NCBI GenBank assembly: GCA_016783155.1
Contig: JADHXB010000002.1
Span: 1 to 58,694 of the forward strand
Source: Dehalococcoidia bacterium
Lineage (GTDB): Bacteria > Chloroflexota > Dehalococcoidia > GIF9 > UBA5629
Reading direction: 5' to 3'
DNA length: 58,694 nt
Below, piece after piece: positions 39,704 through 58,035 of the stretch; positions within the stretch are counted from its first letter, which is position 1, and every line of letters begins with the position of its first letter. The position numbers and the translations under genes were made by a program. The notes beneath the pieces are model-generated. The model was given only the letters and a program-made list of their open reading frames with translations. It made no database searches and was not told where the DNA came from.

Positions 39704-41034
39704 TGCCTCAATACTCCATAAGCAGCCGGGCTTTTTGCCACGCCAAGCCCTACAAATGTACGCATAAAAGTTCTAGTAACAACAACCTGTGTAAACATAC
39801 TCAAAGCCGTGCCGATGAACAGAGTGGTGGCAAAACCTACGACCAAAAAATTGCCGAATGTATTTCCGAGCCAGTAAAGGACGGCACAGACGATGAAGAC
39901 GGTTACATTAGCATCAAAAATAGCTGACCATGATTGGCGGAAGCTCTCCTCTATCGCTGCCCCAAGCGTACGCCCACGTCTCAATTCCTCTTTCAAACGC
40001 TCAGCCACAAGAACATTACCATCTACTCCCATACCTATGGATACAATAAAGCCAGCAATACCCGGGAGCGTCAAAACAACGGGGAGCAGCTTAAAAATAG
40101 CCAGGTTCAATGCCACGAAAACCACCAGCGCCAGGCAGGTCACAAAACCGGAGAAGCGGTAATAGGCAATCATAAACAGAACCACCATGGCTGCCCCGAT
40201 TATCCCTGCCATCAGGCTTTTCCTCAGAGAATCCTCCCCCAAGGTGGCACCGATATCTCTGCGTTCAACTACAGTCAGGGGTACATCCAAAGAGCCCGAG
40301 TTAAGCTGTATAGCTAGCGTCCTGGCTTCGTCTAGATTCAGACCGGTAATAACCCCTCTCTCCTTAATCACGGCTTGTACCGTTGGCGCCGAGATAAGCT
40401 GGTCGTCCAAGAATATACCCAGAGGCTTCTGCAAGTTGCGCTGGGTAATCTGCTCAAAAAGGATGGCGCCTTCAGAATTCCACTCGAAAGCCACCTCGGG
40501 CTCATTTGTCTGCGGCGTTAAATCTACCTGGGCATTCGGCTTCAGATACTTGCCGGTAAGCTCCCTTTCCTGCTCGTCGCTGCCACGGGCTGTAGCCTTG
40601 ACCCACTGCTCTCTGCCTTCCTCATCAAGCACCGGCTTGCCGTCCACATCAAGCACAATCTCTCTGAAATCAAGCTCAGCCGTCTGGCCGATAAGCTTCA
40701 TCGCCTCGTCAATATCCTTGACTCCGGGAAGCTGGACAAGAACGAAGCTACCTCGTTCGTTCCGAATCGTCTGGACTATAGGCTCGGTCACACCATAGGC
40801 ATTAACTCGACGTTCAATTTTGCTTTTCACACCCTCGATAACATCAGCATCTGTCTGTGCCGGGTCTTTCTTGCTTAAGTCGATGCTGTAAATTAAATGA
40901 CTGCCTCCCTTAAGGTCAAGTCCTAATTTAAACTCATCTCTGCCAAATATTCCGCTACCTGGCAATATCACCCACAGGCAGAAGCCAAATAGAATCAGTA
41001 TGAAAATGAGTAGAGGGGTATTTCCTCTTTTCAA
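39700..41034 (-). CDS. secD: Protein translocase subunit SecD
   Basis: 444 aa with LGLDLKGG, a P1 domain and a C-terminal 6-TM domain. Confidence 0.9.
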   Translation of the reverse strand: MKRGNTPLLIFILILFGFCLWVILPGSGIFGRDEFKLGLDLKGGSHLIYSIDLSKKDPAQTDADVIEGVKSKIERRVNAYGVTEPIVQTIRNERGSFVLVQLPGVKDIDEAMKLIGQTAELDFREIVLDVDGKPVLDEEGREQWVKATARGSDEQERELTGKYLKPNAQVDLTPQTNEPEVAFEWNSEGAILFEQITQRNLQKPLGIFLDDQLISAPTVQAVIKERGVITGLNLDEARTLAIQLNSGSLDVPLTVVERRDIGATLGEDSLRKSLMAGIIGAAMVVLFMIAYYRFSGFVTCLALVVFVALNLAIFKLLPVVLTLPGIAGFIVSIGMGVDGNVLVAERLKEELRRGRTLGAAIEESFRQSWSAIFDANVTVFIVCAVLYWLGNTFGNFLVVGFATTLFIGTALSMFTQVVVTRTFMRTFVGLGVAKSPAAYGVLRQ

Positions 41035-41073
41035 CTAACCACCTGTTCCTAATAGCATTAATTGTCTCCAATT

Positions 41074-41097
41074 GTCACTCTGAGCGAAGCGAAGAGC
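41074..41097. repeat. Half-copy of repeat family A
   Basis: gtcactctgagcgaagcgaagagc, between secD and cca. Confidence 0.6.
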
Positions 41098-41126
41098 GCA
41101 GAATAACAAAAATCGTTAGTGAGCCA

Positions 41127-42608
41127 TTAACAGGCCATGCCGCACTGTCGTTTCCCCAATTCCTTGCGCACCAGGGCTATGGCTTCCTCCCGTGTGCTCA
41201 ATTCACCAGCCACTTGAGCCTCACGTACCTCGGTCAGAAGCTCACCAATCAGACGCCCTGGACTCAAGCCAAAGATATCCATTAAATCATGCCCATCGAT
41301 TAGCCTGACCGGCAAAATCTCAGCCTCCTGCTTCACATGCTCAGCCAATATATAGCCAATCAACTGATTATGCTGCTGCCATTCCTCAATGTCAAGCCGA
41401 GGTCCATGAGTAGCCAGATAATCAGCCAGGGCTACAAACAAAACGTCGATACCAGCATCCTCAGTATCACGAAAATACCGATAAACAGCCCGACTTGTAG
41501 GCAAACCTTCGTTAGACATCTGGGCGGGGCGGAGGTGGTGATAAACCAGATTCTCCACCAATCTTATCTCCCGACTGCTGAACCGCAGCCTCTCCAAAAC
41601 TCCGACTGCCATAGCTGCCCCCTGCTTGGCATGTCCTAAAAAACGTGTTCTGCCTGTTTCATCGACTGTCCTGGTAGCTGGTTTGGCAATATCATGCAAT
41701 AATGCCCCCAGCTTAAGCATCAGCCTTCGATTGCTGCCGCTGGACACCTCCTCATCAAAATGCCGACTTATCTCCTCCGACCACGGGGTCACCTTCAACA
41801 AATCCTCTTTACCATATTTCCACAAGCTCTCCCGGAGCAAAAACTCGGCAGCAGCCATCGCCTCCACTGAATGGTCAAAAACGTCCCAATAATGCTCTTT
41901 CGGCTGCTCCGCCCCCTTAAGCTCTTTGAGCTCAGGGACTATCTCGGTGAGCAAGCCTAACTCATCCAGATAGCGCACCATTTCACCGGAGCCGGGCAAA
42001 GCCAGTATCCTCACCATCTCCTCTCGCAGTCGCTCGCCAGAAACCAGCTTAGCCTTTCGACAGTCTCTTCGAATTAAACTTTCGGTTCCAGGCTCAATCC
42101 TGAAACCAAGCTCACCAGCCAGCCTGACACCCCGAAGCAGCCTTGCCCCATCCTCCACGAAAATCCTCTGGTTCACCGCCCGCACCAGCCTCTCCTTCAA
42201 GTCGCTTTCTCCAGAGAAAGGGTCAATAAGCTGTGCAGACCCCGAAATGACGCCTTGAAGCTCCACCGCCATGGCATCAATGGTGAAATCTCGCCGTGCC
42301 AGGTCACTTTGGATACCGTCTGAGAAAGAAGAGAAGTCCAAGTGCCACATCTGTTCATCCGCAACAACCACCCTGGCCACCCTATTGGCTTCATCCAGCA
42401 AAACATACCTGCCGTCAACAGCTTCTGCTACATCCTGAGCTATACTCAAGGCGTCGCCACATACGGCAATGTCAACATCTGCTGTCTGCCTGTCCAGCAA
42501 CCAGTCGCGGACAAAGCCGCCGACTACATAAGCTGGGCAGTTTTGCTGGGTGAGAATAGCGGATACCTTGGTCAGAAAACCGAGCAGGTCTTGATTGATG
42601 TCGGACAT
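41127..42608 (-). CDS. cca: CCA-adding tRNA nucleotidyltransferase with C-terminal HD domain
   Basis: It has the PolyA_pol head (VVGGFVRDWLL..DVDIA), RDFTIDA and the HD region LLHDIAKP. Confidence 0.85.
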   Translation of the reverse strand: MSDINQDLLGFLTKVSAILTQQNCPAYVVGGFVRDWLLDRQTADVDIAVCGDALSIAQDVAEAVDGRYVLLDEANRVARVVVADEQMWHLDFSSFSDGIQSDLARRDFTIDAMAVELQGVISGSAQLIDPFSGESDLKERLVRAVNQRIFVEDGARLLRGVRLAGELGFRIEPGTESLIRRDCRKAKLVSGERLREEMVRILALPGSGEMVRYLDELGLLTEIVPELKELKGAEQPKEHYWDVFDHSVEAMAAAEFLLRESLWKYGKEDLLKVTPWSEEISRHFDEEVSSGSNRRLMLKLGALLHDIAKPATRTVDETGRTRFLGHAKQGAAMAVGVLERLRFSSREIRLVENLVYHHLRPAQMSNEGLPTSRAVYRYFRDTEDAGIDVLFVALADYLATHGPRLDIEEWQQHNQLIGYILAEHVKQEAEILPVRLIDGHDLMDIFGLSPGRLIGELLTEVREAQVAGELSTREEAIALVRKELGKRQCGMAC

Positions 42609-42647
42609 TGCCCCAGATTATACTCTGGGGCAATGAAATTGTAAAGG

Positions 42648-43676
42648 CTATTTTGAGGTTAATGCCTTGTTTACTGCATGAAAAGCGTTGATACGTCCTT
42701 TAACTGCACTGGTGTCAACCGCATCACAGCTACCCTCAATGGCTGCTCTCACCTCATCACTGATAAAACCCTTACTATTCTTATCACTTCTCAGGGCGAA
42801 AAGAAGACCAGCCAACCCAGACACATGAGCTGCAGCCATTGAAGTGCCACTTTTACTGCCATATCGATCACCAGGCAATGTGGAATAGATGTCCACACCG
42901 GGAGCGGCTAAATCTACCCAATCACCCCAGCTCGACCACGAGGCCAAACAATCATTACTGTCAGTAGCTGCCACAGCAAGACAACTGGAGTAATAAGCTG
43001 GATAGGCTATCTTTGTACCTATACAGTTACCGGATGCAGCTATCACAACAACTCCTTTGCTCCAGGCATAGTTAATTGCTTCTTCCAGGTCCCGTGATGG
43101 TTCAGTGCTGAACAGACTCATATTTATAACCTTAGCACCATGCTCCACCGCCCACCTAACACCTTTAGCCGCTACGGAACCATAAAATATACCGTAATCA
43201 TCAGCCACTTTGACATTCATCAAACGACAGTCACACGCCACGCCGGCAATACCTGCACCATTATTTGCCGCAGCGGCAATAATGCCGGCAACATGCGTAC
43301 CATGCCCATATATGTCATCAGCGGTCGGGCTATCAGTGAAATTGACTTCAGCTATCACCTTGCCGACCAGGTCCTCATGCTCACTATCGATCCCAGTGTC
43401 TAAGACAGCGATAACAACGCTTGCCTCTCCCGATGTAACTTCCCATGCCTGAGGCACCATAGTCTTCGGAATAGCCCATTGCCTGCCAGAATAATCATCA
43501 TTAGAAGCTACCGCAAACGATTCATAGCTGGCAGGCTCGGGCTCGGAAGTGATGACAGCCACAGAGCCTCGCTCAGCCTCAGGGCTGCCTGGGAAAGTTT
43601 GAAAGGACAGGAAACTTGCCGCTAAACAGAAGAGGAGGAAAAAAACTGGGAACCATTTAAACTTCGTTCTAGTCAT
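42648..43676 (-). CDS. Secreted subtilisin-like (S8) serine protease
   Basis: It has a signal peptide and the catalytic triad motifs AVLDTGID, HGTHVAGI and SGTSMAAAHVSG. Confidence 0.85.
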   Translation of the reverse strand: MTRTKFKWFPVFFLLFCLAASFLSFQTFPGSPEAERGSVAVITSEPEPASYESFAVASNDDYSGRQWAIPKTMVPQAWEVTSGEASVVIAVLDTGIDSEHEDLVGKVIAEVNFTDSPTADDIYGHGTHVAGIIAAAANNGAGIAGVACDCRLMNVKVADDYGIFYGSVAAKGVRWAVEHGAKVINMSLFSTEPSRDLEEAINYAWSKGVVVIAASGNCIGTKIAYPAYYSSCLAVAATDSNDCLASWSSWGDWVDLAAPGVDIYSTLPGDRYGSKSGTSMAAAHVSGLAGLLFALRSDKNSKGFISDEVRAAIEGSCDAVDTSAVKGRINAFHAVNKALTSK

Positions 43677-43807
43677 ACCAGAGCTAGTTTACATGGCCCA
43701 GCCCGTTTGCGAATCACCTGTAGGTAACGTTCTCATGTAGCATTTAGTCGCCTTTCAAACCAGTATTAGAGTCCTATAACAGCCTTCAAGGAGATGTACA
43801 CGTTAAT

Positions 43808-43888
43808 GGCACATCTATTCAGGCTTTTCTTTGGAGGAGAGAGCTATCCTGAATAGATGTGCCCACGAGGCTTTAGTCTCGTGGGCAC
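43808..43888. repeat. Two adjacent long hairpins
   Basis: ggcacatctattcagg and cctgaatagatgtgcc are 16-bp arms with a 24-nt spacer. They overlap gtgcccacgag-gctttagt-ctcgtgggcac, which has 11-bp arms. Confidence 0.7.
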
Positions 43889-43939
43889 GACCTTAATGGG
43901 CATTGACAAAATATGTTTACACTACATACTCTTGGTAGA

Positions 43940-44016
43940 GATTCTTCGACTCCGCTTGCGCTACGCTCAGAATGACAGTTTCGTCATTGTCACCCTGAGC
44001 GATAGCGAAGGGTCTC
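43940..44016. repeat. Repeat family A arms
   Basis: gattcttcgactccgcttgcgctacgctcagaatgac is followed by gtcaccctgagcgatagcgaagggtctc. Confidence 0.65.
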
Positions 44017-44168
44017 AAGATAGCCTATATATGAACAACGCACACTGTTAACTTAAATAGGACATGACCATAAGGGTCGTGGCTTAAATGGGGGGAATCA
44101 ATCTGCGTGGTACGGACTTATTCGCTGCCGTGTTCAGGAAATGCTTACTCGTCCAGCCTTTCAGCTAG

Positions 44169-44354
44169 CTACTTATTGGCAAGGAACAGGGCAACATCTT
44201 CCCTGCTGAATCTACGGTCGCCTCGCGGACCGATGCGGTAAGCCTTCAGTACTCCCCTCACATCCCACCGTCGCACCGTATTAATGTGCACGTTGAGCAT
44301 CTGGGCTACCTGCCGTGCTGTCAACATTCCATTCTTTCGACTATGCCGCGCCAT
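44169..44354 (-). CDS. Small excisionase-family/MerR-like HTH DNA-binding protein
   Basis: MLTARQVAQMLNVHINTVRRWDVRGVLKAYRIGPRGDRRFSREDVALFL matches the excisionase-type HTH pattern. I chose the ATG at 44354, after aggag. It is divergent from the surface-protein cluster. Confidence 0.65.
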   Translation of the reverse strand: MARHSRKNGMLTARQVAQMLNVHINTVRRWDVRGVLKAYRIGPRGDRRFSREDVALFLANK

Positions 44355-44428
44355 ACCAAAACTCCTCATAACAACTCTAGGTTATCCTATATAAACTTTA
44401 ACTCAACTTAGCTCACTATACAATCACC

Positions 44429-44459
44429 TAAAGGTACCGAACGATGTAGTAGATTAGCC
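44429..44459. promoter_or_regulatory. Conserved upstream site AAAGGTACC-N7-GTAGTA-N3-TAG (copy at locus A)
   Basis: taaaggtaccgaacgatgtagtagattagcc. The same motif, with the same spacing, occurs twice upstream of locus B (47075..47106 and 47166..47197). Confidence 0.4.
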
Positions 44460-44515
44460 TTGAACGATTCTAGGAAAAGGGTACTATAAAGTGAGGTTTT
44501 GTTAGGATAAGTTAC

Positions 44516-44544
44516 TTGACACCTACTACGTTATATGCGATTAT
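44516..44544 (+). promoter_or_regulatory. Sigma70-type promoter A
   Basis: TTGACA, 17 nt, then GATTAT with TG at the extended -10 position. The whole -47 to -10 segment is duplicated at 47217..47258. Confidence 0.55.
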
Positions 44545-44550
44545 GCTTCA

Positions 44551-44695
44551 GCTAAATACAATACGAACGAAAGCTCGCAACAAACCAGCGAGCCAGCGAG
44601 TACATCAAATGGGGAGCGATGAAGCACCGGTCGCAATTTGGCCACTTGGCTGGTGCCGAGCTAGTAGTGAAACCGACCCATAAGGTCGGTTTTTG
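44551..44695 (+). ncRNA. Candidate structured leader RNA / sRNA, copy A (conserved hairpin + intrinsic terminator)
   Basis: The 65-nt core from gcgatgaag (44616) to 44680 differs from copy B at 5 positions, and the terminator follows. An 8-bp hairpin pairs 44625-44632 with 44648-44655. The terminator is at 44670-44695. The coding start follows at 44728. Confidence 0.5.
44670..44695 (+). terminator. Rho-independent terminator A
   Basis: aaaccgacc-cataa-ggtcggttt followed by ttg. The stem is 9 bp, followed by a T-tract. Confidence 0.65.
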
Positions 44696-44727
44696 CTTAA
44701 GTGGGAGTGCTGGAGGCAACGGATTTC

Positions 44728-46563
44728 ATGGTAACTATGAACAAAAGGAACAGGTTGATTACACTGAATAACGTCTTTCGCGGCTTGGTAGCCTTAGTGC
44801 TGGCAATGTCATTCCTATTTCCTTGTTTGAGCCCGATTGCCGCATTTGCCCAACCAACTTGGCCCACCGGCTGGATAAGCATCAGTACAGATGTCAACGA
44901 AGGCGGAGGGGACGATTTCCGCGATGTACTGGAGTCATACTACCAAGCGGACAGTGACTACCTTTATCTGAGACTTAGGACCGTCGAGCCTGCGGCTCTC
45001 AAAACTACTAACAAATATGGTAGATACAAATGGTTTTTTGATACGAATAATGATATGACCTTGCCGGGGAGTTCAGGTGGCACCGTCTATAATTGGGAAT
45101 ACTTGTTTTACGTAGAGGATACAAATGGGGATGGCATTGGGGAAGTTTACCTGGGAACACCTTCAAACCCTGCTGGCGACCTTATCACCGACACGGACAT
45201 AGCCGGCTACAGGTTAAATTCAGGCGGTAACTATGCAGACCTTTATATAAGACTCTACGACATCGCTGACCTGGCCAATTATTGGATAGGATGGTCAACT
45301 GACCCTAAAAATCCAAACTATGACCAGTCACCTAGATTAGACTCGCAAGACTCTACCACGGCCATTCCTATAATTGCAAAGGGCTCCATCACGGTGGAAA
45401 AGGCGGTGGTAGGACCGTCACCAGGCAGTAACTGGCAGTTCAACTACACCGGCCCGGGCACCGTTTCAGGCAATTTCAATATCGCGGCTGGCGGCGGACA
45501 ACAAATACTTAGCAACCTGCCCTTTGGTAGCTACACCATAACCGAGACCACAAAGGCATACTATATTTGTTCGCCGAGTGACACTATCAGTGTAGTATTA
45601 TCAGCAGCTCAGCCCAGTCGCACCGTCACCTTCACCAACACTTTAGCGACGGCACCAACTGTAGATGCCATAGAAATCTATGCCACCCAAGACTGCCTCG
45701 GACCTCCCGTTACTTCAATGGACCCACAAACCACCTACTACGCCAAGGCATCAATTACTTGCGACGATAATCTGAGCTACCTTCAAACAATCCAGGTAAC
45801 CCTCTTCTATGACAGCGCCGGCAACGACCCCATCGCACCGGCAACATCCGGTACCCAGACCTGCGCCATACTCACCTGCACTGTCGGCCCACCACCAAGC
45901 TGGACCATTGAACCCAACAATACTCCTCCTAATCCTCTTACCACCTGGGAAATAGTGCCTGGTGAGTGTGTCCAGCCAGCAAATCTTGATGTCACCAGCG
46001 GCGACTGGATATTCGCCTTCGTACCAGGTAAGGTAGCCACCGAGAGCATCGCGCCGGCTGATTGGGATGCCCAGGGTCTGGCAACCAATAAGGCCGACCA
46101 ATGGGGTGAACTGTATGTCCGCGATAAGGCAATGAACTGGTACGGCGAGATTACTGTGCCCGCGTCAGTGGACTGGGGCGAAGTGCCTCTGGGCTTGACC
46201 TTCGAAACTGTGCCTGAGAATCCAGAGACCGCAAGCATTACATACATCGCCAACGGCGACTACTTTGAGGATATCAGGTCATTAGGCACCTGGACCGGCA
46301 GTGGTGAGAGCGTAACGCTCGATGTGACCGACGGCAACCCACCCCCCGCAAGCATGTTTTCCCTCATGGCAGACAACACCGCTGTCCTGGGTGATGCAGT
46401 TGTTGTCACCACGCTCTACAAACATATAAACGCCAGCGGAAGCCTCACCGGCGAAGACGGCGTTACCGTTACCACCAACAGCTTGTGGCTATCGCTCGGT
46501 GAGACGAGCATCGTCCCGGTGATTTATAGCGGCACCATATACTTCCAGATTGCCGAACGCTAG
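44728..46563 (+). CDS. Secreted multi-domain surface protein (N-terminal beta-sandwich-like domain, SpaA/prealbumin-like fold domain, about 300-aa C-terminal domain shared with 47566..48582)
   Basis: It has a signal peptide ending AAFA-QP. GSITVEKAVVG...FGSYTITET resembles Cna-B/SpaA-type domains. The C-terminal 300 aa are collinear with the next gene. It has no membrane anchor. I chose the ATG at 44728, after GGAGG. Confidence 0.7.
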   Translation: MVTMNKRNRLITLNNVFRGLVALVLAMSFLFPCLSPIAAFAQPTWPTGWISISTDVNEGGGDDFRDVLESYYQADSDYLYLRLRTVEPAALKTTNKYGRYKWFFDTNNDMTLPGSSGGTVYNWEYLFYVEDTNGDGIGEVYLGTPSNPAGDLITDTDIAGYRLNSGGNYADLYIRLYDIADLANYWIGWSTDPKNPNYDQSPRLDSQDSTTAIPIIAKGSITVEKAVVGPSPGSNWQFNYTGPGTVSGNFNIAAGGGQQILSNLPFGSYTITETTKAYYICSPSDTISVVLSAAQPSRTVTFTNTLATAPTVDAIEIYATQDCLGPPVTSMDPQTTYYAKASITCDDNLSYLQTIQVTLFYDSAGNDPIAPATSGTQTCAILTCTVGPPPSWTIEPNNTPPNPLTTWEIVPGECVQPANLDVTSGDWIFAFVPGKVATESIAPADWDAQGLATNKADQWGELYVRDKAMNWYGEITVPASVDWGEVPLGLTFETVPENPETASITYIANGDYFEDIRSLGTWTGSGESVTLDVTDGNPPPASMFSLMADNTAVLGDAVVVTTLYKHINASGSLTGEDGVTVTTNSLWLSLGETSIVPVIYSGTIYFQIAER

Positions 46564-46693
46564 ACCTAGTCGTATAGACAACAATAAAACATGTAGCCGC
46601 GACCTTTTAAGGTCGCCCAAGGTTCTCTCTCCTGGCAGAAAAGAGTTTCACCCTTGTTCTCTCTCCCCCGGCGGGAGAGAGTTAGAGTGATTT

Positions 46694-46773
46694 TTAGGTG
46701 TCACCTGCCCACAGGTGACCCACCATGCAATTCAAACCGCTACGGTCACCCGTAGGCGGGTGACACGTAGGTA
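46694..46773. repeat. 80-bp repeat family C, copy 2
   Basis: It is near-identical to 37426..37505, with a handful of substitutions. Confidence 0.85.
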
Positions 46774-46775
46774 AA

Positions 46776-47010
46776 CTGTCATCGCGAGGGGTGTTTCTTT
46801 TTCCTGTCATCGCGAGGAGCAGAGCGACGTGGCGATCTCATTCTACATCCTGTCATTCTGAGGGAGCGAAGCGACCGAAGAATCTGACTCAGGGTAAACT
46901 CCGTGACTGAAGAATCTCACGTCTTCCCTGCCACTGAGATTGCCACGCTTCGCTCGCAATGACAGGATGAAAGAGGTCGCAATGACAGGTAAAAAGATGC
47001 AATGACAGAG
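46776..47010. repeat. Nested composite of repeat families A and B
   Basis: On the left, ctgtcatcgcgagg occurs twice. In the centre is gtcattctgagggagcgaagcgaccgaagaatc plus cagggtaaactccg. On the right, gcaatgacag occurs three times. Confidence 0.75.
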
Positions 47011-47020
47011 AAAAAGTCGC

Positions 47021-47200
47021 GCCGGCGAGGTTAAAGTCTCGCCGCTACGTCACTCATCCCACCAGACAATCCCCCAAAGGTACCACATTCCGTAGTAAAA
47101 TAGTCCTGACTTCCGGCGGGGCTAAAACCTCACCGCTACGTTGCTCATCCCACCAGACAATCCCCCAAAGGTACCACATTCCGTAGTAAAATAGTCCCGC
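47021..47200. repeat. Tandem direct repeat, 91-bp period, two units with a 54-bp perfect core
   Basis: ctcatcccaccagacaatcccccaaaggtaccacattccgtagtaaaatagtcc occurs at 47053..47106 and again at 47144..47197. Each unit starts with a GC hairpin ending ccgctacgt. Confidence 0.9.
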
Positions 47201-47229
47201 TATGGTAAAGTCCTGATAGGATAAGATAC

Positions 47230-47258
47230 TTGACAACAACAGGACTATATGCGAATAT
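47230..47258 (+). promoter_or_regulatory. Sigma70-type promoter B
   Basis: TTGACA, 17 nt, then GAATAT with an upstream TG. It is a paralog of promoter A. Confidence 0.55.
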
Positions 47259-47264
47259 ATCGCC

Positions 47265-47380
47265 TAGATATAATTTAAATACAACTTTTATTGGGAGGCG
47301 ATGAAGCACCGGCCGTAATTTGGCCACTTGGCCGGTGCCGAGCCAATAGTGAAACCGACCCAAAAATGGGTCGGTTTTTG
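47265..47380 (+). ncRNA. Candidate structured leader RNA / sRNA, copy B
   Basis: It has the same core as copy A. The hairpin is perfect, pairing 47307-47314 with 47330-47337. The terminator is at 47352-47380. The next coding start is 185 nt downstream. Confidence 0.5.
47352..47380 (+). terminator. Rho-independent terminator B
   Basis: aaaccgaccc-aaaaat-gggtcggttt followed by ttg. The stem is 10 bp, followed by a T-tract. Confidence 0.65.
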
Positions 47381-47434
47381 TTTCAGACAAATAAGGAGTT
47401 GATTCACTAAAATAACAAAGAGTGTTTAGTAATT

Positions 47435-47498
47435 CGTCACTTCGAGCGGAGCGAAGAGTCTCCAGATTCTTCGGTCGCTTTGCTCCCTCAGAATGACG
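47435..47498. repeat. Repeat family A, full palindromic element
   Basis: cgtcacttcgagcggagcgaagagtctccagattcttcggtcgctttgctccctcagaatgacg. Confidence 0.75.
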
Positions 47499-47565
47499 AA
47501 AGGCGCTGTTAAAGTACCTGCAATAAAATACCAAATTAACATATAAGGAGGTTAAAATAGGAAAA

Positions 47566-48582
47566 ATGTTCAAAACGAAGTTATCTATCGCAATTGCCTT
47601 AGTGGCAGCTTTGCTGCTGGCGCCAGCAGCTTATGCCGCTGAAGGAACAACCACCGGGAGCTTCGGCGCATCCGGCCTACCACCAACCGTGGACGCAATA
47701 GGAATCTATACCGACATTGGGTGCACCTTACCAGCCACCGACATGAATCCGCAAACCGAATACTACTGCAAGGTAACGGTTGGCTCCATAAATAAACTGA
47801 AGCACCTCAGCACGGTCAAGGTAACCCTATTCTACGATAGCGGCGGCGACCCTGTTGCACCGATCATACCCGATACTCAGACCTGCGCCATACTCACCTG
47901 CACCGTCGACCCGCTAGCCTGGGCGATGTTACCCACCGGCGGCAGCACCACCTGGTCGATAGACTCAGGCGACTGTTCTCAACCAGCAGACCTGAACGCC
48001 ACCACCGGCGACTGGATATTCGCCTTCACGCCAGGCAAGGTAGCCACCGAGAGCATCGCGCCGGCTTATTGGGATGCTCAGGGTCTGGCAACCAATAAGA
48101 CCGCCCAAACAGGTGAACTATACGACCGCGATACGGCAATGAACTGGTTTGGCGAAATCACTGTGAATACCGCCTCAGTTAACTGGGGTGCAGTGCCTCT
48201 GGGCTTGGTCTTCGAGAATGCTACTTACAATCCAGAGACCGGCATAGACGTTAACTACATCGCCAACGGCGACTACGAGGAAGATATCAAGTCAACAGAC
48301 TGGGTCGGCGCTGTCAGCCTTGATACCGTAACCCTTGATGTGACCGGTGGTAATCCACCCGCTGCCGACAGTCAGTTTGCCCTCGAGGCTAATGACACCA
48401 GCGACAATGTTACTGCAATTACTGCCACCAACACCTATAATGCTATAGATAACACCGGACTAATAACCGCAGAAGCCGGCGATACCGTTAACACCAACAC
48501 CTTGTGGCTATCACTCAGTGCCGCAGGCATTGTCCCTGATACTTACAGCGGCAGTATCTACTATCAAATTGCCAACCGCTAG
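47566..48582 (+). CDS. Secreted protein consisting of the about 300-aa domain shared with 44728..46563
   Basis: It has a signal peptide ending AAYA-AE. The protein is collinear with the C-terminus of the 611-aa protein, including GDWIFAF.PGKVATESIAPA.WDAQGLATNK and the terminal YSG.IY.QIA.R. It has no anchor. Confidence 0.7.
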   Translation: MFKTKLSIAIALVAALLLAPAAYAAEGTTTGSFGASGLPPTVDAIGIYTDIGCTLPATDMNPQTEYYCKVTVGSINKLKHLSTVKVTLFYDSGGDPVAPIIPDTQTCAILTCTVDPLAWAMLPTGGSTTWSIDSGDCSQPADLNATTGDWIFAFTPGKVATESIAPAYWDAQGLATNKTAQTGELYDRDTAMNWFGEITVNTASVNWGAVPLGLVFENATYNPETGIDVNYIANGDYEEDIKSTDWVGAVSLDTVTLDVTGGNPPAADSQFALEANDTSDNVTAITATNTYNAIDNTGLITAEAGDTVNTNTLWLSLSAAGIVPDTYSGSIYYQIANR

Positions 48583-48904
48583 GCTTCTTAAATTGTTTAC
48601 CAATGTGGCGGCGAGGCTTCAGCCTCGCCGCCATGACCCCCAAGGGCCGAGGTATAGCTTTAATATCTTGGAGGTTCAGGCTACAGGCGATGACAAATTA
48701 GGTGTAGCCACCAGACTTTAGCCTCGTGACTTCAACATTGTTTTACTTTATAATTATAATGTAGCCCAAGGCCCTCTCCTGAGTACTAGCGAAGGATCAG
48801 CCTCAGGACCTCGACCCTGAAGGGTCGAGTCTACAGGTGACGGCAAGGGTCGAGGCTAAATTGTGTATGGAGCGTTAGTAAATGCGCTCAGAAAAGGATT
48901 TGAT

Positions 48905-50044
48905 ATGGTGGTTTCAATAAAGCAACTGAGGGCAGGATGGCTTGCCCTGCTAAGTCTCCTGTTAATGGCAAGCCTGCTCATGGCGCCGCCAGCTTTCGCC
49001 GGCGGGCTGGCGATGTCAGGCAGCTTCTACCGCCAGGAGTTCGAAATACCGCAGGGTACAAGCCTGAATACACCTGACGTCTATGTGGTTGTCTTCAACA
49101 ACAGCGACGAGGAATTCAATATCAGGATGACCACAGAAACCCCCACCGGCGTGGAGCTGTTGCTTTCGGAGAAAGATTTCCCGCTCAAGGCAGGTGAGCA
49201 GAAAAAGGTGACCATAGGCGTTGATGTCACCGAGGCAGCAGTCCCCGGCGAATACACGCTCAAGGTCACTGCCGAAGCCTATAAGGAAGGTGCCGGCATC
49301 CAGCTTCTGGGGGCTGCCGGGCAAACAGCCAATTTAACCGTTACCGGTGAAGTCGCCTCGGTCGAGGTAACAACTGTCACCCCGGGCGGCGGGCCTATTC
49401 CGGCTCTAGTCAAGTTGTATAAGCAAGCCGGCAGCCAAAAGTTCAATGTCGGCCATTCGGAGACGGGAAGCATCAAGATGAAGGTAGCGCCGGGAAACTA
49501 CCTGGCTGAAGCCTATGTCGCCGGCAAAAAGCTGGCTGATGAAAGCTTCGGCATCGCTGCCGATGAGACCAAGAAAATCACCCTGGAGATAAAAACAGTT
49601 TACTTTGAAGGTTTCGGCATCGTCCCTAATTACAATACCGAGACCAATGAGCTGGCTTTCGCCGAGGTAGTCTACACCGTAAACAATCTGCTTGAGGCAT
49701 TTCCTGAAGCCAAGGTGGTACTGAAAGTAACCAAAGGCGGTGCTCCTTTAGATGAGACCACTCTAGCCACGCTGGCCCCACTGGAAAAAGGCAGAGTCGG
49801 CTTGAACTACAACTATATCCCCGGGGGTGGCTGGCGGAAGGCAAGTTACGGTTTTAAGCTGGAGCTTCATATCGGTGGTGAACCCTATGTCACCAGCAAG
49901 GAAGAAAAGCTGGAGCTGGGCGGAGGAACTACAGCTTCGGCAGGCGGTATCAACTGGCTTCTCATCGGCGGCATAGGTGGTGGGGTGGTGATTTTGATAC
50001 TGATTGTCATCATATTCATGATGCGGAGAAGAAGATACTACTAG
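48905..50044 (+). CDS. Signal-peptide protein with beta-sandwich-like repeats and a C-terminal TM anchor
   Basis: The signal peptide is MVVSIKQLRAGWLALLSLLLMASLLMAPPAFA. NEW3/CARDB-like strand patterns are present (VYVVVFNNSDEEFNIRM, PGEYTLKVTAEAY). The C-terminus is INWLLIGGIGGGVVILILIVIIFMMRRRRYY. Confidence 0.65.
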   Translation: MVVSIKQLRAGWLALLSLLLMASLLMAPPAFAGGLAMSGSFYRQEFEIPQGTSLNTPDVYVVVFNNSDEEFNIRMTTETPTGVELLLSEKDFPLKAGEQKKVTIGVDVTEAAVPGEYTLKVTAEAYKEGAGIQLLGAAGQTANLTVTGEVASVEVTTVTPGGGPIPALVKLYKQAGSQKFNVGHSETGSIKMKVAPGNYLAEAYVAGKKLADESFGIAADETKKITLEIKTVYFEGFGIVPNYNTETNELAFAEVVYTVNNLLEAFPEAKVVLKVTKGGAPLDETTLATLAPLEKGRVGLNYNYIPGGGWRKASYGFKLELHIGGEPYVTSKEEKLELGGGTTASAGGINWLLIGGIGGGVVILILIVIIFMMRRRRYY

Positions 50045-50069
50045 TCACATACTACCAACATGAGAACAA

Positions 50070-51506
50070 ATGAACAAATCCGGGCTGAAATATGGCATCT
50101 TACTGCTAAGCCTGCTGCTATGCTTTTTGCCGGCGGGGGCTTATGCCGGTAACGCCTTAAGCGGCAGCTTCACCGTAGTCAGTAATAAGATTATCCTGGC
50201 GGTGAGCAACCCGACCTACACCAGCCTGACCTTGACCTGGGATTCTCCACAAAATACACCTAACTGGGGACCTGGGACTAAATACGATATCCGCTACTCC
50301 CTGTCCCCTATCAATACCGAGGCCGACTGGCAGGCAGCCACCCAGCTATCGAATCCACCACCCCCCGGACCACCCGGCTCTCCAGAGACACTTATCGTCA
50401 TCGGGCTAAATCCATGCACCGTGTATTACTTTGCTATCAAGGCGGCTGATGGCAGCGGGACATGGACACCGCTTTCCAACAGCCCTAGCGGAAAAACGTT
50501 GTGTTACTCAGGTGGCGGCGGGGGTGGCTTACCCCCAGCATACGCTGCCTGCCCGCTAACGCTGGCGGCAAATATGCAGGGCAACGTAGTCACAGTCAGA
50601 ATGACCACGGACGGCGTGCTCTGTGCAACCTGCCTGGCAAAGGATGCCGCAAACAAATACACGCTCGAAATCGATAAGGATGCCAAGGCAATGCTCGCTG
50701 GCAACGTAGTACCACTGCTGTTGACGTGCCGCGAGTCATCAGCTACACTACCAACTCCCGAAAACACTGTCATAGTCAGCCCAGTTTATGAATTCAACGC
50801 TTACTCCTCCGCACACGAGACAACGCCATCGCCTATCACCATCTTACCATCAGCCAGACTGCTTTTAACTTACGACCCCGATGAGCTACCCCAGAACACC
50901 ATCGAGGTGTTCATCGCCAATTACGATACCGAAGAAGGCTGGCTGGCGCTGACTCCAGTGCCAGGGGCTGTCGCTGAAATCGGCAAAGCACACGGACTGC
51001 TGGCCCATTTCTCGCTTTTCGCTGTCCTGGCCAAGCTGCAAGAGCCAGCACCAGCTAAATTCGAGGTGAGCAATTTGACCGTCAGCCCATCACAGGCTCA
51101 GCTCAACCAGGAGGTTACCATCAGCCTTAACGTGGCTAACACCGGCGGGAAAAGTGGAGACTACAACCTGGAGCTAAAAATCGACGGCACAGTTAAGTCA
51201 ACCACGCAGGTAACCGTTGCCGCCGGGGCAAGCCAGATAGTTAACTTCACCTTAACCGGTGATACCGCCGGCAAACACCAGATAGAAGTAGCTGGTCTAG
51301 CTGGCGAATTTGAAGTGATTAAGTTAGCCAAGACGTCTCAAATCAACTGGTGGTTTATCGGCAGCATTACGGGCATAATCCTGGTGCTAGCCATATGGGC
51401 AATCCTAGGCTGGAGATGGCTTAAAGACCGTAAAAAGGCAGCGCCTGCAGCGGTTGCATCCGCTGATGCGCCTGCTGATACACCCACAGAGACACCCGAT
51501 GAATAG
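50070..51506 (+). CDS. Surface protein: signal peptide, FN3-like domain, shared central region, CARDB-like domain, C-terminal TM anchor
   Basis: The FN3 pattern is SLTLTWDSP...YDIRYS...YYFAIKAAD. The CARDB-like region is FEVSNLTVSPSQ...VTISLNVANTGGKSGDY. The anchor is INWWFIGSITGIILVLAIWAILGW. Confidence 0.7.
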   Translation: MNKSGLKYGILLLSLLLCFLPAGAYAGNALSGSFTVVSNKIILAVSNPTYTSLTLTWDSPQNTPNWGPGTKYDIRYSLSPINTEADWQAATQLSNPPPPGPPGSPETLIVIGLNPCTVYYFAIKAADGSGTWTPLSNSPSGKTLCYSGGGGGGLPPAYAACPLTLAANMQGNVVTVRMTTDGVLCATCLAKDAANKYTLEIDKDAKAMLAGNVVPLLLTCRESSATLPTPENTVIVSPVYEFNAYSSAHETTPSPITILPSARLLLTYDPDELPQNTIEVFIANYDTEEGWLALTPVPGAVAEIGKAHGLLAHFSLFAVLAKLQEPAPAKFEVSNLTVSPSQAQLNQEVTISLNVANTGGKSGDYNLELKIDGTVKSTTQVTVAAGASQIVNFTLTGDTAGKHQIEVAGLAGEFEVIKLAKTSQINWWFIGSITGIILVLAIWAILGWRWLKDRKKAAPAAVASADAPADTPTETPDE

Positions 51507-51570
51507 CTACAGAAACAATTGAAGCAACAAAACCATCTGGGTCGGTTTTCCTTTTAAAAACAGGAGTCAA

Positions 51571-52749
51571 ATGCAAAGCTCAGCCATAATCAGATTAGTG
51601 ATTCTAACCATACTGGTATCATGCACAATGGCGTCAGCCTTGAGCATGATACCAGCCAGTGCTCAATCACCCTGCGAATGGACAGAGTATGGCAATAATC
51701 CGGTATTTGGCCAATGGCCGCCCGGTGGCGCCAAAGCTTATTATCCTAAAGTCATCTATGATGCTAACCAGTTCTCCGGGCACGGCGACAATGCCGCAGT
51801 CTCAGTTAATGTCATACAATGTGGTGGTGTCGGAGGTGGTAGTTTACCCCCAGCATACGCTGCCTGCCCAATAACACTGGCTGCAGATATGCAGGGGCAA
51901 ATAACCACAGTCAGAGCGACCAAGGACGGAGTGCTCTGTACAACCTGCGTGGCAAAGGACGCTTCAGGCAAATATACGCTTCAGCTCGATGAAGGCACCA
52001 AAGTAACCTCCGCTGACAATACAGTGCCACTGATATTGAGATTCCGAGAGACATCCGCCAGACCTCCAACTCCGGAAAACACCATAATAGTCGGGCCAGT
52101 CTACGAGGTCAATGCCTATTCCTCTATACCCCCAACAACGCCATCGCCTGTCACCATCTCACCACCAGCCAGGCTGATTTTGACCTACGAGCCCGATGAG
52201 CTACCCAAGAACACCTCGGAGGTGTTTATCGCCAATTACGATACCGAAGAAGGCTGGATGGCATTGGCATCAGGGCCAGGTGCTGTCGCCGAGGTCGGAA
52301 GAGCACAATGCCTGCTAAATCACCTCTCGCTTTTCGCTGTCTTAGCCAAGGTTACAGAGCCAGAGCCAGCTAAATTTGAGGTGAGCAATCTGACCATCAG
52401 CCCATCCCAGGCTCAGATCAACCAGGAGGTTACCATCAGCCTTAACGTGGCTAACACCGGCAGAAAAAGTGGAGACTACAATCTAGAGCTAAAAGTCGAC
52501 GGCACAGCTATGTCAACCAAGCAAGTAACCGTTGCCCCCGGGACAAGCCAAACGGTGAACTTAACCGTAACTGAAGATACTGCCGGCAAGCACCAGGTAG
52601 AAGTAGCTGGCCTAGGTGGCGAATTTGAAATAGTTAAGACAGCCAAGACATCTCAAATCAACTGGTGGCTTATCGGCAGCATCACGGGCGCAATACTGTT
52701 GATAATCATAGGGTTAATTGCCTGGAGAAGACAGCCTAGAGGCTACTAA
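51571..52749 (+). CDS. Paralog of 50070..51506 with a different N-terminal module
   Basis: From LPPAYAACP to the TM anchor it is collinear and indel-free with the previous gene, at a constant offset of 1315 nt. The N-terminal 85 aa are unrelated (CEWTEYGNNPVFGQW...). Confidence 0.7.
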   Translation: MQSSAIIRLVILTILVSCTMASALSMIPASAQSPCEWTEYGNNPVFGQWPPGGAKAYYPKVIYDANQFSGHGDNAAVSVNVIQCGGVGGGSLPPAYAACPITLAADMQGQITTVRATKDGVLCTTCVAKDASGKYTLQLDEGTKVTSADNTVPLILRFRETSARPPTPENTIIVGPVYEVNAYSSIPPTTPSPVTISPPARLILTYEPDELPKNTSEVFIANYDTEEGWMALASGPGAVAEVGRAQCLLNHLSLFAVLAKVTEPEPAKFEVSNLTISPSQAQINQEVTISLNVANTGRKSGDYNLELKVDGTAMSTKQVTVAPGTSQTVNLTVTEDTAGKHQVEVAGLGGEFEIVKTAKTSQINWWLIGSITGAILLIIIGLIAWRRQPRGY

Positions 52750-52837
52750 CCTCTGTAAAGTATATAGTTCATTCCTGCTCTGGGCGAGGCATAAGCCTCG
52801 CCCAGCATATTTTAATTCTCCACGAGTGTTCATTAAC

Positions 52838-52934
52838 CTGTCACTCTGAGCAAAGCGAAGAGTCTCCAGATTCTTCAGTCGCGGAGTTTACCCTGCGTCG
52901 GATTCTTCGGTCGCTCCGCTCCCTCAGAATGACA
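52838..52934. repeat. Repeat family A, full element with ggagtttaccctg core
   Basis: ctgtcactctgagcaaagcgaagagtctccagattcttcagtcgcggagtttaccctgcgtcggattcttcggtcgctccgctccctcagaatgaca. Confidence 0.75.
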
Positions 52935-53017
52935 AAAAGAATTGCTAAACACTCTGATCTCGTTCAGATAGATGGGTGATACTTTAGGTGATTCTGCCAT
53001 GGAGCGACAGCTTACCG

Positions 53018-53130
53018 CGTCATTGCGAGCCGAAGGCGTGGCAATCTCATTGCAATTGTCGAGGCTGCTAAATTGGAGCGCCGACCTTACCTGGAGATTG
53101 CCACGTCGCTATCGCTCCTCGCAATGACAG
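53018..53130. repeat. Repeat family B, full palindromic element
   Basis: cgtcattgcgagccgaaggcgtggcaatctc ... gagattgccacgtcgctatcgctcctcgcaatgacag. Confidence 0.75.
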
Positions 53131-53209
53131 AAAAATCATGGCGTCACCAATGTACTTGACGAGTACAATTACTTGTCGGCTATCTTTCGCCACGCTATAA
53201 TTAGATGCC

Positions 53210-54322
53210 ATGCGTTATCGGCGTTTGATAGCTAAGTTCGGCACCAACCTGCTCACCGGTGGTACTGACCACCTCGAGCCTAATATTATGTCAAGTCTCG
53301 CAGAGCAGGTGGCTCAGCTTCACCAGCAAGGCCACGAGATAATCATCGTGTCCTCAGGAGCCGTTGCCGCCGGCAGACAAAAATTGGTCACATCCAAAGA
53401 ACGAAAAACCATCCACTTCAAGCAAGTCCTCGCCTCCGTAGGACAAAGTCAGCTTATGAATGTCTATGAGCAGCTCTTCAGTCAGTACAATATAATCGTA
53501 GCTCAGGCGCTCCTGACCAGGTCTGACCTGATTGACCGCGCTGGCTATTTGAACGCCCGCAACACACTGCTAGCCTTGCTTGAATTGGGCGTGATTTGCA
53601 TCGTGAACGAGAACGACGTCGTCGCCACAGATGAACTCGGTGAGCTTACCTTCGGAGATAATGACAACCTTTCAGCCATGGTGGCTAATCTGGTAGATGC
53701 CGACCTTCTGGCACTGCTCACCGACATTGACGGTCTGTATACTGCTGACCCGCAGCTTAATCCTCAAGCCAGGCTTATCCCCAGGGTCGAAAAGATAGAT
53801 GCCGAGATCGAGCGCCTGGGCGGCGACACTGCCAGCTCCTGCGGCGTCGGTGGCATGATAACCAAACTCGAGGCTGCCAAACTAGCGACGGCTTCAGGAG
53901 TAACCGTGGTTATCGCTAATGGACGGAAGCCCGATGTCCTGAAGCAAATCGCACTTGAACAAAGCATTGGCACCATATTTCCATCACGAACCAGCAAGCT
54001 GGAGAGCAAGAAACGCTGGATGCTGAGCCGGCTTGCCTGCAAGGGGAAATTGATAATCGACGATGGTGCCGTCCTAGCCCTCAAGAAGCAGAACCGTAGC
54101 CTGCTTCCAGCCGGGGTTGTCGGTATGGAAGGTGAATTCGAGCGTGGCGACGTCGTGGATATTTTCGACTCGAAAGGCAGCCAAATCGGCTGCGGCATAC
54201 CTAACTACAGCTCACAGGATATCACTAGAATCAAAGGCGCCCAGTCTGAGACAATCACAAGCCTTCTCGGCTACGAATACGGCACCGAGGTGATACACCG
54301 GAATAATATGGTGCTCATATAA
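53210..54322 (+). CDS. proB: Glutamate 5-kinase with C-terminal PUA domain
   Basis: It has VSSGAVAAG, FGDNDNLSA, TDIDGLYTADP and a PUA-like C-terminus. Confidence 0.9.
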   Translation: MRYRRLIAKFGTNLLTGGTDHLEPNIMSSLAEQVAQLHQQGHEIIIVSSGAVAAGRQKLVTSKERKTIHFKQVLASVGQSQLMNVYEQLFSQYNIIVAQALLTRSDLIDRAGYLNARNTLLALLELGVICIVNENDVVATDELGELTFGDNDNLSAMVANLVDADLLALLTDIDGLYTADPQLNPQARLIPRVEKIDAEIERLGGDTASSCGVGGMITKLEAAKLATASGVTVVIANGRKPDVLKQIALEQSIGTIFPSRTSKLESKKRWMLSRLACKGKLIIDDGAVLALKKQNRSLLPAGVVGMEGEFERGDVVDIFDSKGSQIGCGIPNYSSQDITRIKGAQSETITSLLGYEYGTEVIHRNNMVLI

Positions 54323-54332
54323 AGGGGACGAT

Positions 54333-55607
54333 ATGCAATCTGCGATAACTGAACTGGAAGAAAAAGGCAAAGCGGCTAAGGCGGCTTCAAAAAAGCTTGC
54401 CTCCTTGCCTACCGAAGTCAAGAACAGAGCCATACTCGGCATCGCCGACGCGCTCGGGGCCAGACAGAACGAAATTCTAGCCGCCAACAGCCAGGACTAT
54501 AATGAGTCCGAAGCTTCCGGTATGAGTGCAGCTATGCTTGACCGTCTGATGCTGAATCCAAGTCGGCTTGAGGGCATAGCCAATGATGTGAGAACCGTAG
54601 CCGCCCTGGCTGACCCGGTAGGTGAGGTGATTGAAAAGCGCACCTTGCCCAACGGTCTCCATCTCAGCAAGAAGCGCGTACCGCTTGGCGTCATCGGCGC
54701 CATCTACGAGAGCCGCCCCAATGTCACTGTGGACATCTCTGTGTTATGCCTTAAATCAGGCAATGCCGTCATTCTTCGCGGCGGCAAGGAGGCACTACGC
54801 TCCAATCTGGCTCTGGCTAAGGTTGTTCAAGAGGCCGCTTACAAAGCCGGTGTGCCACAGGGCTCTGTGCAGATTATAGAATCAACGGACAGGGCTCTGG
54901 TCGACTATATGCTTAAGATGAAGGGCACTATAGACCTAATAATTCCTCGCGGTGGCACCGGCCTGATCAAGTCTGTTGCTGAAAACGCCGCCATGCCTGT
55001 AGTTACCGGCGGTATTGGCGTCTGCCATACATACGTGGACAAAAACGCTGACTTAAACAAGGCGGTAGCCATCGCCTATAACGCCAAGGTTCAACGGCCT
55101 ACTGTTTGCAATGCTCTGGATACCCTCCTGGTTCATACTGAAATCGCTCCACGGTACTTGCCTTTAATTGCCCAGGAATGGGCAAAGGCTAGTGTGGAAA
55201 TGCACTGCGATAAGCGCGCTTTAACCATTCTCAAGCCGATTACTTCCCTCAAACTCGTTCCGGCAAAAGCTGATGACTGGGGCAAAGAGTTTCTGGCCTT
55301 GATTGCGGCGATTAAGGTTGTCGATTCGCTGGACGAGGCGTTAGAGCACATAGAACACTACGGCTCAGGGCATTCTGAGGCTATAGTTACCGAGGATAAA
55401 TCGGCGGCGGCACGCTTTCTTAACGAAGTGGATGCCGCCTGCGTCTATGCCAATGCCAGCACCCGCTTCACCGATGGCAGCCAGTTCGGCCTGGGCGCTG
55501 AAATAGGCATAAGCACGCAAAAGTTCCATGCCCGCGGCCCTATGGCACTAAGGGAGTTGACCAGCTACAAGTGGCTTATTGTTGGCGATGGACATGTTCG
55601 GCCTTAA
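54333..55607 (+). CDS. proA: Gamma-glutamyl phosphate reductase
   Basis: It has [27 protein letters not shown] and [11 protein letters not shown] motifs. Confidence 0.9.
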
Positions 55608-56332
55608 TCAAGCTCTGCCAAAGCCGCCTTCTGGATTTTGAATAACTGCTTGATGCCCTTTTCAGCAAGTGCGAGCAAAGCATCAATGGTCTCTTTGGAA
55701 AAAGGCGCGCCTTCGGCTGTGCCTTGAAGCTCAACAAACTCGCCCTTGTCAGTCATAACCACATTAAAGTCCACAGCCGCCCGGTAGTCTTCCTCATAGC
55801 AGAGGTCAAGAAGCTCTTCCCTACCCATAATGCCAACACTGGTAGCAGCTACCACCCCATTCAACGGAACTGATGCTAATGTGCCTTGCTTCTTCAAGTT
55901 ATGCAATGCCACAAATAAAGCCACATAGCCCCCGGTTATAGCTGCGGTCCGAGTACCGCCATCAGCCTGCAATACATCACAGTCCACAGTAAGGGTTCTT
56001 TCACCCAAAGCCACAAGGTCGGTAACAGCCCTCAAGCTACGACCGATAAGACGTTGGATTTCTTGATTTCTACCGGCTATCCTCTCAGGAGAGATGCCCC
56101 GCGGAGTGCGAGTGAGCGTAGAACGAGGCAGCATGGCATATTCAGCAGTAACCCAACCAATGCCTTCACCTTTGAGGAAGCGGGGAACCTTCTCCTCCAC
56201 GCTCACAGCACAGAGCACTCTGGTACGCCCTAATTCTATCAATGCCGAGCCTTCAGCAAAAGCCTGATAGCCCAGGCTGATACTCGCTGGGCGAAGCTCA
56301 TCATTAGCACGACCGTCTACTCGTTTCATCAA
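55604..56332 (-). CDS. rph: Ribonuclease PH
   Basis: It has [25 protein letters not shown] and [14 protein letters not shown] motifs. Confidence 0.9.
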
Positions 56333-56410
56333 AACCCCTGCCTCGCTTTCTAATCAACCCAGTATAGCATCGACTTGTCTAGCTTAACAAGGCTAAACGT
56401 GGAGAGTTTT

Positions 56411-56530: not shown

Positions 56531-56588
56531 ATTCGCTACCAGCATTCCTTGACACCCTCTAGGTGGCGGTGATAGACTCCAAAGGCAA

Positions 56589-57416: not shown

Positions 57417-57418
57417 TT

Positions 57419-57532: not shown

Positions 57533-57562
57533 CAGGAGTATAAGCAGCCTTAAAGGAAAGAT

Positions 57563-58027: not shown

Positions 58028-58035
58028 GAAGTGAG

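Follow-up and report, generated by a model that had tools for sequence, protein, structure and literature searches.

Two class II c-di-GMP riboswitches overlapping intrinsic terminators upstream of paralogous secreted-protein genes in an uncultured Dehalococcoidia bacterium

The stretch of DNA analysed here, 58,694 nucleotides of contig JADHXB010000002.1 from the Dehalococcoidia bacterium assembly GCA_016783155.1 (below, the window), carries two copies of a riboswitch of the already known class II for c-di-GMP, each overlapping an intrinsic terminator and each located in front of a gene for a secreted protein. Judging from the sequence, it is very probable that both copies can be explained in full as leader switches of this class. 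From the overlap with the terminators, it is most likely that c-di-GMP switches the two related secreted-protein genes on. The aptamers, their P1 helices and the genes behind them are located as follows.

44603-44687, + strand: c-di-GMP-II aptamer, copy A (RF01786, 67.3 bits, E = 5.9e-13, model positions 1-84 of 84)
44609-44613 with 44677-44681, + strand: P1 of copy A
44728..46563, + strand: gene A, secreted protein of 602-611 aa, start at ATG 44728, ATG 44737 or TTG 44755
47285-47369, + strand: c-di-GMP-II aptamer, copy B (RF01786, 77.7 bits, E = 6.9e-16, model positions 1-84 of 84)
47291-47295 with 47359-47363, + strand: P1 of copy B
47566..48582, + strand: gene B, 338-aa secreted protein with a predicted all-beta fold of Ig-like tandem domains

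The class was assigned by a scan of the whole window with Rfam 15 at gathering thresholds, and the E-values given above refer to the whole window. These were the only two Rfam matches in the window, both 14 to 24 bits above the RF01786 gathering score of 53.5 bits, and for both copies RF01786 outscored two variants of the same clan, the weaker overlapping clan matches being removed. A covariance model of our own (R1), built from 11 sequences of relatives, gave 93.7 bits for copy A and 102.7 bits for copy B. No further riboswitch or other RNA family was found at the Rfam gathering score or with model R1 in the whole window, or at E <= 1 in positions 40000-58694; the c-di-GMP-I riboswitch (GEMM-I, RF01051) gave no gathering-score match in the window and none at E <= 1 in positions 40000-58694. 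The initial annotation of this DNA had proposed a candidate novel riboswitch, which is ruled out by the full-length matches of both copies to RF01786 above its gathering score; its suggestion of c-di-GMP among the candidate ligands agrees with the assignment to RF01786, from which this ligand is predicted. The c-di-GMP-II class was described in 2010, and since both copies are annotated by a routine Rfam scan, they are of little importance for RNA biology. The remaining interest is contextual and lies in the Dehalococcoidia host, the uncharacterised Ig-like targets, a C·A mismatch in the pseudoknot and the conserved flanking elements.

Positions 44610-44683 and 47292-47365 were paired by a repeat finder as a direct repeat of 74 nt with 89% identity (family D5). 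The 65-nt core initially described as common to the two copies contains exactly the five substitutions given for it, and its hairpin, caccggYc/ggcYggtg, has a G-U and a U-G pair in copy A and a G-C and a C-G pair in copy B. The proposal that RNA rather than a peptide is conserved here has held, base pairs and not codons being preserved by the substitutions. When the core is placed on the class, GGC...GCC corresponds to P2, the hairpin just mentioned to P3 and UGGG/CCCA to P1, while the strands of the pseudoknot are the loop UUUGGCCACUU and the downstream segment AGUGAAACCG. The consensus nucleotides of the single strands and junctions (GA..C..UGA, GAG, AGU.GUG and AACCG) occur in both copies, with two exceptions: a paired G of the loop is changed to C, and a C of the joining region (J) is changed to A.

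The same element was found in numerous relatives. More than 200 homologues of protein B were retrieved, none of which has a name; wherever an organism is given for the source, it is Chloroflexi or Dehalococcoidia. An alignment of the family served to gather loci: species-representative genomes, all of them MAGs of Dehalococcoidia type, contributed 17 and metagenomes 79. Within the 17 genome loci, Rfam detected a riboswitch of the c-di-GMP-II clan at nine places, and in seven loci the Rfam-matched riboswitch lies 130-270 nt upstream of the orthologue. The covariance-model search for homologues that had been suggested as a check was carried out with model R1, and 36 elements, 30 of them distinct, were found in 97 sources with a total of 382 kb. 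The 30 distinct elements come from Dehalococcoidia MAGs and metagenomes, and nearly all are situated closely 5' of orthologues in the same protein family, so the association of element and gene is conserved. Elements matched by R1 adjoin homologues with about 46% identity or more; none was found near more distant homologues within the flanks examined.

In several loci (L006, L033 and L035-L039) the matched gene encodes an A-type long protein, and the riboswitch is found after it and before a B-type gene. The order in L006 is that of the window, namely riboswitch, A-type gene, riboswitch, B-type gene, indicating that the duplicated arrangement is old. The 89% identity of the two window copies could reflect functional constraint or gene conversion and not a recent copying event. 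The first element of L006, a syntenic Dehalococcoidales MAG, is a degenerate riboswitch in front of the A-type gene (positions 112-197 of that locus): it reads AAUGGU for GAUGAA, UUAC for UCAC, GAA for GAG and AGCCG for AACCG, reaches 56 bits on model R1 and falls below Rfam reporting at the gathering score. It may be either a decaying element or a variant.

The structure is supported by covariation among the 30 distinct sequences. Pairs were counted over the named structure, i.e. a 5-bp P1, P2, a 9-bp P3 and the pseudoknot. Paired cells made up 94.1% of the total, eight pairs were changed on both sides, and 24 additional pair types were seen besides the commonest ones. The covariation score was 0.212, against 0.131 ± 0.008 for shuffled alignments (0 of 500 reached 0.212) and at most 0.069 for slid controls, in an alignment which, being fitted to the model, leans somewhat towards the structure. 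All three helices contribute: the outer pair of P2 (14/62) is GC in 22 sequences, CG in 2, UA in 2, UG in 2 and AU in 1; pair 30/49 of P3 is UA in 16 and CG in 12; pair 8/80 of P1 is UA in 18 and CG in 7. Covariation is present in P1, P2 and P3, the score for the whole structure lying above both shuffles and slid controls. P1 covaries even between the two window copies, with AUGGG/CCCAU in copy A against UUGGG/CCCAA in copy B. The pseudoknot behaves differently in one position. Its consensus is GGGCAC with GUGC..CC, of which the window copies can form five of the six pairs (GG.CAC with GUG..CC); the sixth is a C·A, since in both copies GUGA faces GGCCAC of the P3 loop. U-A stands at this position in 26 of the 30 sequences, the Rfam consensus pair being G-C; C·A is also found in two other lineages. 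The pseudoknot pairs are otherwise almost invariant and hence receive no covariation support in the 30-sequence set.

Some of the relatives score better on a variant of the class, c-di-GMP-II-GAG (RF03169), and the positions which distinguish it are compared below.

RF01786: joining region GUGCAACCG, P3 loop UGGGCAC, three J positions GCA
RF03169: joining region GCGAGACCG, P3 loop CGGuCGC, three J positions GAG
Window copies: joining region GUGAAACCG, P3 loop UGGCCAC, three J positions GAA
Clade-2 relatives (L004, L007-L009, L012, L034 and L040): joining region GUGAGACCG, P3 loop CGGUCAC, three J positions GAG

Two elements of other loci, L007 2736-2820 and L003 6864-6948, score best as RF03169. 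The window copies share the clan and the fold with this variant and have A at the first distinguishing J position, but they differ from it in having GAA instead of GAG and CAC/GUG instead of CGC/GCG, and they score lower on it than on RF01786. They retain the parent A at the last distinguishing J position, together with the parent CAC/GUG pairing. An assignment of the window copies to RF03169 was therefore rejected, RF01786 winning the clan competition and both GUGAAACCG and UGGCCAC differing from the variant consensus. In the clade-2 relatives, a long conserved 5' leader (gctacgctgg...ggagcgtgaccggaggagag...aagggtag) is present between the promoter and the aptamer.

These intermediate features leave a small chance that the Dehalococcoidia elements represent a sub-lineage intermediate between canonical members and the GAG variant (GAA or GAG, several with C·A), maybe with a shifted specificity or affinity, which would be embedded in a three-layer control region of direct repeats, riboswitch and SD-like element over a family of pilin-like surface proteins. 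Shifts in ligand specificity have happened in variants of other riboswitch classes, and it might be supposed that the Dehalococcoidia subfamily keeps the c-di-GMP-II fold and senses another cyclic or linear dinucleotide. The GAA of the window and the GAG of clade 2 at the variant-distinguishing J positions, the two elements that score best on RF03169 (in L007 and at L003:6864) and the C·A in the pseudoknot of both window copies could all be read in this way. Such a change of ligand is nevertheless quite unlikely, as the window copies score best on the parent model and well over its threshold, the A-U pair of CAC/GUG is kept, as are the other upper-case consensus nucleotides (GAUGA, GAG, AGU.GUG and AACCG), and the surface-protein context of the genes is typical for c-di-GMP. 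According to a review (PMC7583470), one guanine of the ligand joins an A-U pair of this kind in a base triple, and the CAC/GUG pair of the window copies would be its counterpart.

Directly at the 3' end of each aptamer an intrinsic terminator is predicted.

44670..44694, + strand: terminator A, 5' arm AAACCGACC (44670-44678), loop CAUAA, 3' arm GGUCGGUUU and U-tract
47351..47379, + strand: terminator B, GAAACCGACCCA / UGGGUCGGUUUU and U-tract

Terminator A has a folding energy of -15.1 kcal/mol (z = -4.4) and terminator B one of -19.0 kcal/mol (z = -5.4), and in neither case did any of 200 shuffles fold as well. Both were found by folding and neither was listed by a simple terminator scan, we think because the A-U extension of the stem uses up the T-run. 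The initial annotation had treated a strong terminator as a third part of the shared module, next to the promoter and the core. The strong hairpin is indeed present in both copies; it is not a separate part, since the aptamer's 3' end forms its 5' arm. The loop difference noted there between the two terminators results in part from the compensatory change in P1.

In both copies the 5' arm of the terminator overlaps the 3' strands of the pseudoknot and of P1. The arm, AAACCGACCC, provides both the pseudoknot 3' strand (CC of AACCG) and the P1 3' strand (CCCAW), and the same geometry is found in all 30 distinct loci, each with a predicted hairpin and U-tract directly 3' of the aptamer and a 5' arm in the AACCGACC(C) segment, which consists of the last two pseudoknot nucleotides and the P1 3' strand. 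Aptamer and terminator are mutually exclusive, since the same nucleotides are needed by both. By nearest-neighbour energies, the terminator fold lies below the aptamer secondary structure alone by 11 kcal/mol in copy A and 17 kcal/mol in copy B; being so much more stable, it should make termination, or OFF, the default state. The cis position of the elements agrees with such a role: the promoter lies 55-87 nt upstream of the aptamer and the gene 33-197 nt beyond the terminator, all on the same strand, and this arrangement is kept in orthologous loci. A cis-acting riboswitch with a terminator as its platform, as proposed initially, is what an RF01786 aptamer overlapping a terminator amounts to. 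The distance of 32 nt reported earlier from terminator A to the start codon is 33 nt if counted to ATG 44728, and 42 nt or 60 nt if ATG 44737 or TTG 44755 is the start; the accompanying idea that the downstream gene requires read-through fits a terminator predicted in its 5' UTR.

Each leader would accordingly combine a sigma-70-type promoter with a short 5' leader, the class II aptamer with P1, P2, P3 and pseudoknot, and the overlapping intrinsic terminator. Without c-di-GMP, the terminator would form and transcription would end at 44694 (A) or 47379 (B). If c-di-GMP were bound during transcription, the pseudoknot and P1 would hold the shared segment and the terminator would be blocked, allowing read-through, in copy A into gene A and in copy B into gene B, probably together with the three genes for surface proteins that follow it. 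In this way both secreted Ig-like paralogues would be turned on by high c-di-GMP. A simple regular expression for the GGDEF motif gave no match in the window's six-frame translation.

The opposite direction, in which the ligand promotes termination, or a translational switch, in which it hides the ribosome-binding site, is very unlikely. The direction of a switch is unreadable from the aptamer alone, and the class I c-di-GMP riboswitches of Clostridioides difficile are OFF switches (PMC6366702). However, the 5' arm of the terminator lies within the ligand-stabilised P1 and pseudoknot in 30 of 30 loci, meaning that a bound aptamer and the terminator cannot coexist and that a separate anti-terminator is unnecessary; an OFF switch was rejected on this overlap geometry. 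Against translational control, the start codons lie 33-197 nt past the terminator and no pairing with the SD sequence was seen.

In some other bacteria, terminated riboswitch transcripts act in trans. Least probable of all is that the core encodes the leader peptide of an attenuator, for which a GGGAG(G/C) followed by ATG in the core might speak, or that the RNA released at the terminator, about 115-145 nt long, works mainly as an sRNA in trans: the ORF from ATG 44619 is not conserved between the copies, its frame having 50 codons in copy A and stopping after 5 in copy B (ATG AAG CAC CGG CCG TAA), the GAUGAA around this ATG is a conserved aptamer element in Rfam, the substitutions keep base pairs rather than codons, and nothing requires a role in trans.

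Transcription of the switches, predicted to act in cis and in the ON direction, would start from the following promoters, which are preceded by further conserved elements.

44406..44515, + strand: conserved region 5' of promoter A, with a AAAGGTACC block (repeat D3, 44406-44463) and a direct-repeat unit
44504-44516, + strand: direct-repeat unit AGGATAAGTTACT, abutting the -35 element of promoter A
44516-44521 and 44539-44544, + strand: promoter A, TTGACA, 17 nt, GATTAT, with TG at -15/-14 (extended -10)
47022-47106 and 47113-47197, + strand: tandem 85-nt repeat, 92% identical (repeat families D3 and D4)
47218-47230, + strand: direct-repeat unit AGGATAAGATACT, followed by promoter B (the whole element spans 47218..47258)
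47230-47235 and 47253-47258, + strand: promoter B, TTGACA, 17 nt, GAATAT, with TGC before the -10 element

The TTGACA-17-GA(T/A)TAT promoter described initially for both regions was borne out by reading and aligning positions 44300-44900 and 47050-47600. Promoter A was also picked up by a promoter scan, and its predicted transcription start is at about 44551. Promoter B was absent from the scan list because its -10 element matches TATAAT at only three of six positions. The promoter layout is kept in orthologous loci.

The conservation extends upstream of the -35 elements. The tandem 85-nt repeat holds the same CCCCCAAAGGTACC block as is found upstream of promoter A, and the spacing of the upstream blocks from the -35 element is the same in about 18 orthologous loci. 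The conserved region before the -35 (44406-44516 and 47022-47230 in the window) also occurs in L003, L005, L006, L024-L031, L036, L037, L039 and L044. In the different species the -35 element is directly adjoined by a unit AGGWWAARRTACT, in most loci with a second copy 32-33 nt upstream; further upstream follows a CCCAAAGGTACC block, which in the window is part of the 85-nt tandem repeat. On sequence grounds, the AGGWWAARRTACT direct repeats look like a transcription-factor binding site, and if they are one, a second control layer would exist above the riboswitch. The promoter-proximal repeat recurs with one mismatch (ATGGGATAAAGTACTTG) at 13905-13921 on the minus strand, inside a 676-aa ORF (12139-14169); this copy is probably due to chance, five matches having been found where 1.5 were expected.

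The statement that the genes behind the two riboswitches encode paralogous secreted proteins with a common 300-aa domain was confirmed, proteins A and B being 58% identical over 307 aa and both having signal-peptide-like N-termini. The ENA gene call for gene A starts at TTG 44755. Protein A has a weak match to DUF5979, and its paralogy to protein B lies in a C-terminal domain of about 300 aa. No family was found for protein B in Pfam or NCBIfam scans. Its AlphaFold model has a mean pLDDT of 92 and consists almost entirely of beta-strands after the N-terminal signal helix; a Foldseek search with protein B gave weak matches (TM about 0.23), at the top of which were the Gram-positive pilins BcpA and GBS80 and other Ig-like adhesins. 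With more than 200 members, the family that comprises protein B and protein A's C-terminal half (45655-46563) is apparently Dehalococcoidia-specific. Gene B is followed by further genes for surface proteins.

48863..52749, + strand: three genes, their products being secreted proteins of CARDB, fn3 and Ig-like type

One of the three has a weak match to a C-terminal transmembrane anchor, below the family cut-off. No terminator-like site was found on the + strand after gene B before 52780-52805, and the three genes and gene B may form one transcription unit. Upstream of riboswitch A, the first large ORF encountered is a subtilase (Peptidase_S8) gene at 42648-43676 on the minus strand; a secreted protease beside surface proteins predicted to be under c-di-GMP control recalls the pairing of PPEP-1 with adhesins in C. 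difficile (PMC6366702). The prediction that follows from this arrangement is that Dehalococcoidia use c-di-GMP to turn on a conserved family of secreted proteins, Ig-like and resembling pilins or adhesins, that has no name. This would provide a first functional handle on the family, pointing to surface attachment or aggregation at high c-di-GMP. The riboswitch can also serve as a marker of the regulon that is searchable in MAGs, which is of modest value for the biology of uncultured Dehalococcoidia.

A similar system is known from C. difficile, in which each of the four riboswitches of class II acts as an ON switch, and they are located upstream of pilA1 and of genes for the sortase-anchored adhesins CD2831 and CD3246 (PMC6366702). 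The window copies belong to the same family, RF01786, as Cdi-2-4 (pilA1) and Cdi-2-3 and Cdi-2-1 (CD2831 and CD3246), with the same P1, P2, P3 and pseudoknot, and they share with them a terminator-type platform, as in Cdi-2-4, a predicted ON logic and secreted or surface targets. They differ in their host, an uncultured member of the Dehalococcoidia (Chloroflexota), in their unnamed target family, in the C·A of the pseudoknot, in an SD-like element after the terminator and in direct repeats 5' of the -35 element. The affinity of characterised class II members for c-di-GMP ranges from 200 pM to 2 nM (PMC7583470, a review). A comparable logic is found on another scaffold in the c-di-GMP-I riboswitch Bc2 of Bacillus thuringiensis, where c-di-GMP lifts termination in the 5' UTR of a collagen adhesion protein gene (PMC4933901): this too is an ON switch by relief of termination before an adhesin gene, but its aptamer fold (GEMM-I) is unrelated, and RF01051 was unmatched in the window. 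In a literature search, the combination of c-di-GMP, riboswitch and Dehalococcoidia was not found, diguanylate cyclases with Dehalococcoidia gave nothing useful, and c-di-GMP-II together with Chloroflex* was found only in a general riboswitch survey.

The leaders contain two further elements between the terminator and the gene, located in the window as follows.

47393..47403, + strand: AAGGAGTTGAT, a degenerate copy of the SD-like AGGAGGTGAT, with a counterpart in leader A at 44710-44716
47436..47500, strand not assigned: REP/MITE-like palindromic element in leader B (family D19)

The SD-like AGGAGGTGAT is near-perfect in 26 of the 30 distinct loci, where it lies 10-20 nt past the U-tract of the terminator, or about 19-38 nt after the end of the aptamer (L003-L044). 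The start codon, with a AAGGAGGT of its own, is found 100-270 nt downstream of it, and no conserved ORF follows the element in the riboswitch loci compared. It may act as a STAB-SD-like mRNA stabiliser or as a ribosome standby site for read-through transcripts. The insertion in leader B also occurs in L005, L022 and L031 and is absent in L003, L025-L029 and L044. REP/MITE-like palindromes (GTCAYTCTGAGSGAGCGAAG... and GCAATGACAGG repeats) fill the intergenic region between genes A and B, and in the window they are located at 46760-47020, 47436-47500 and 41074-41096.
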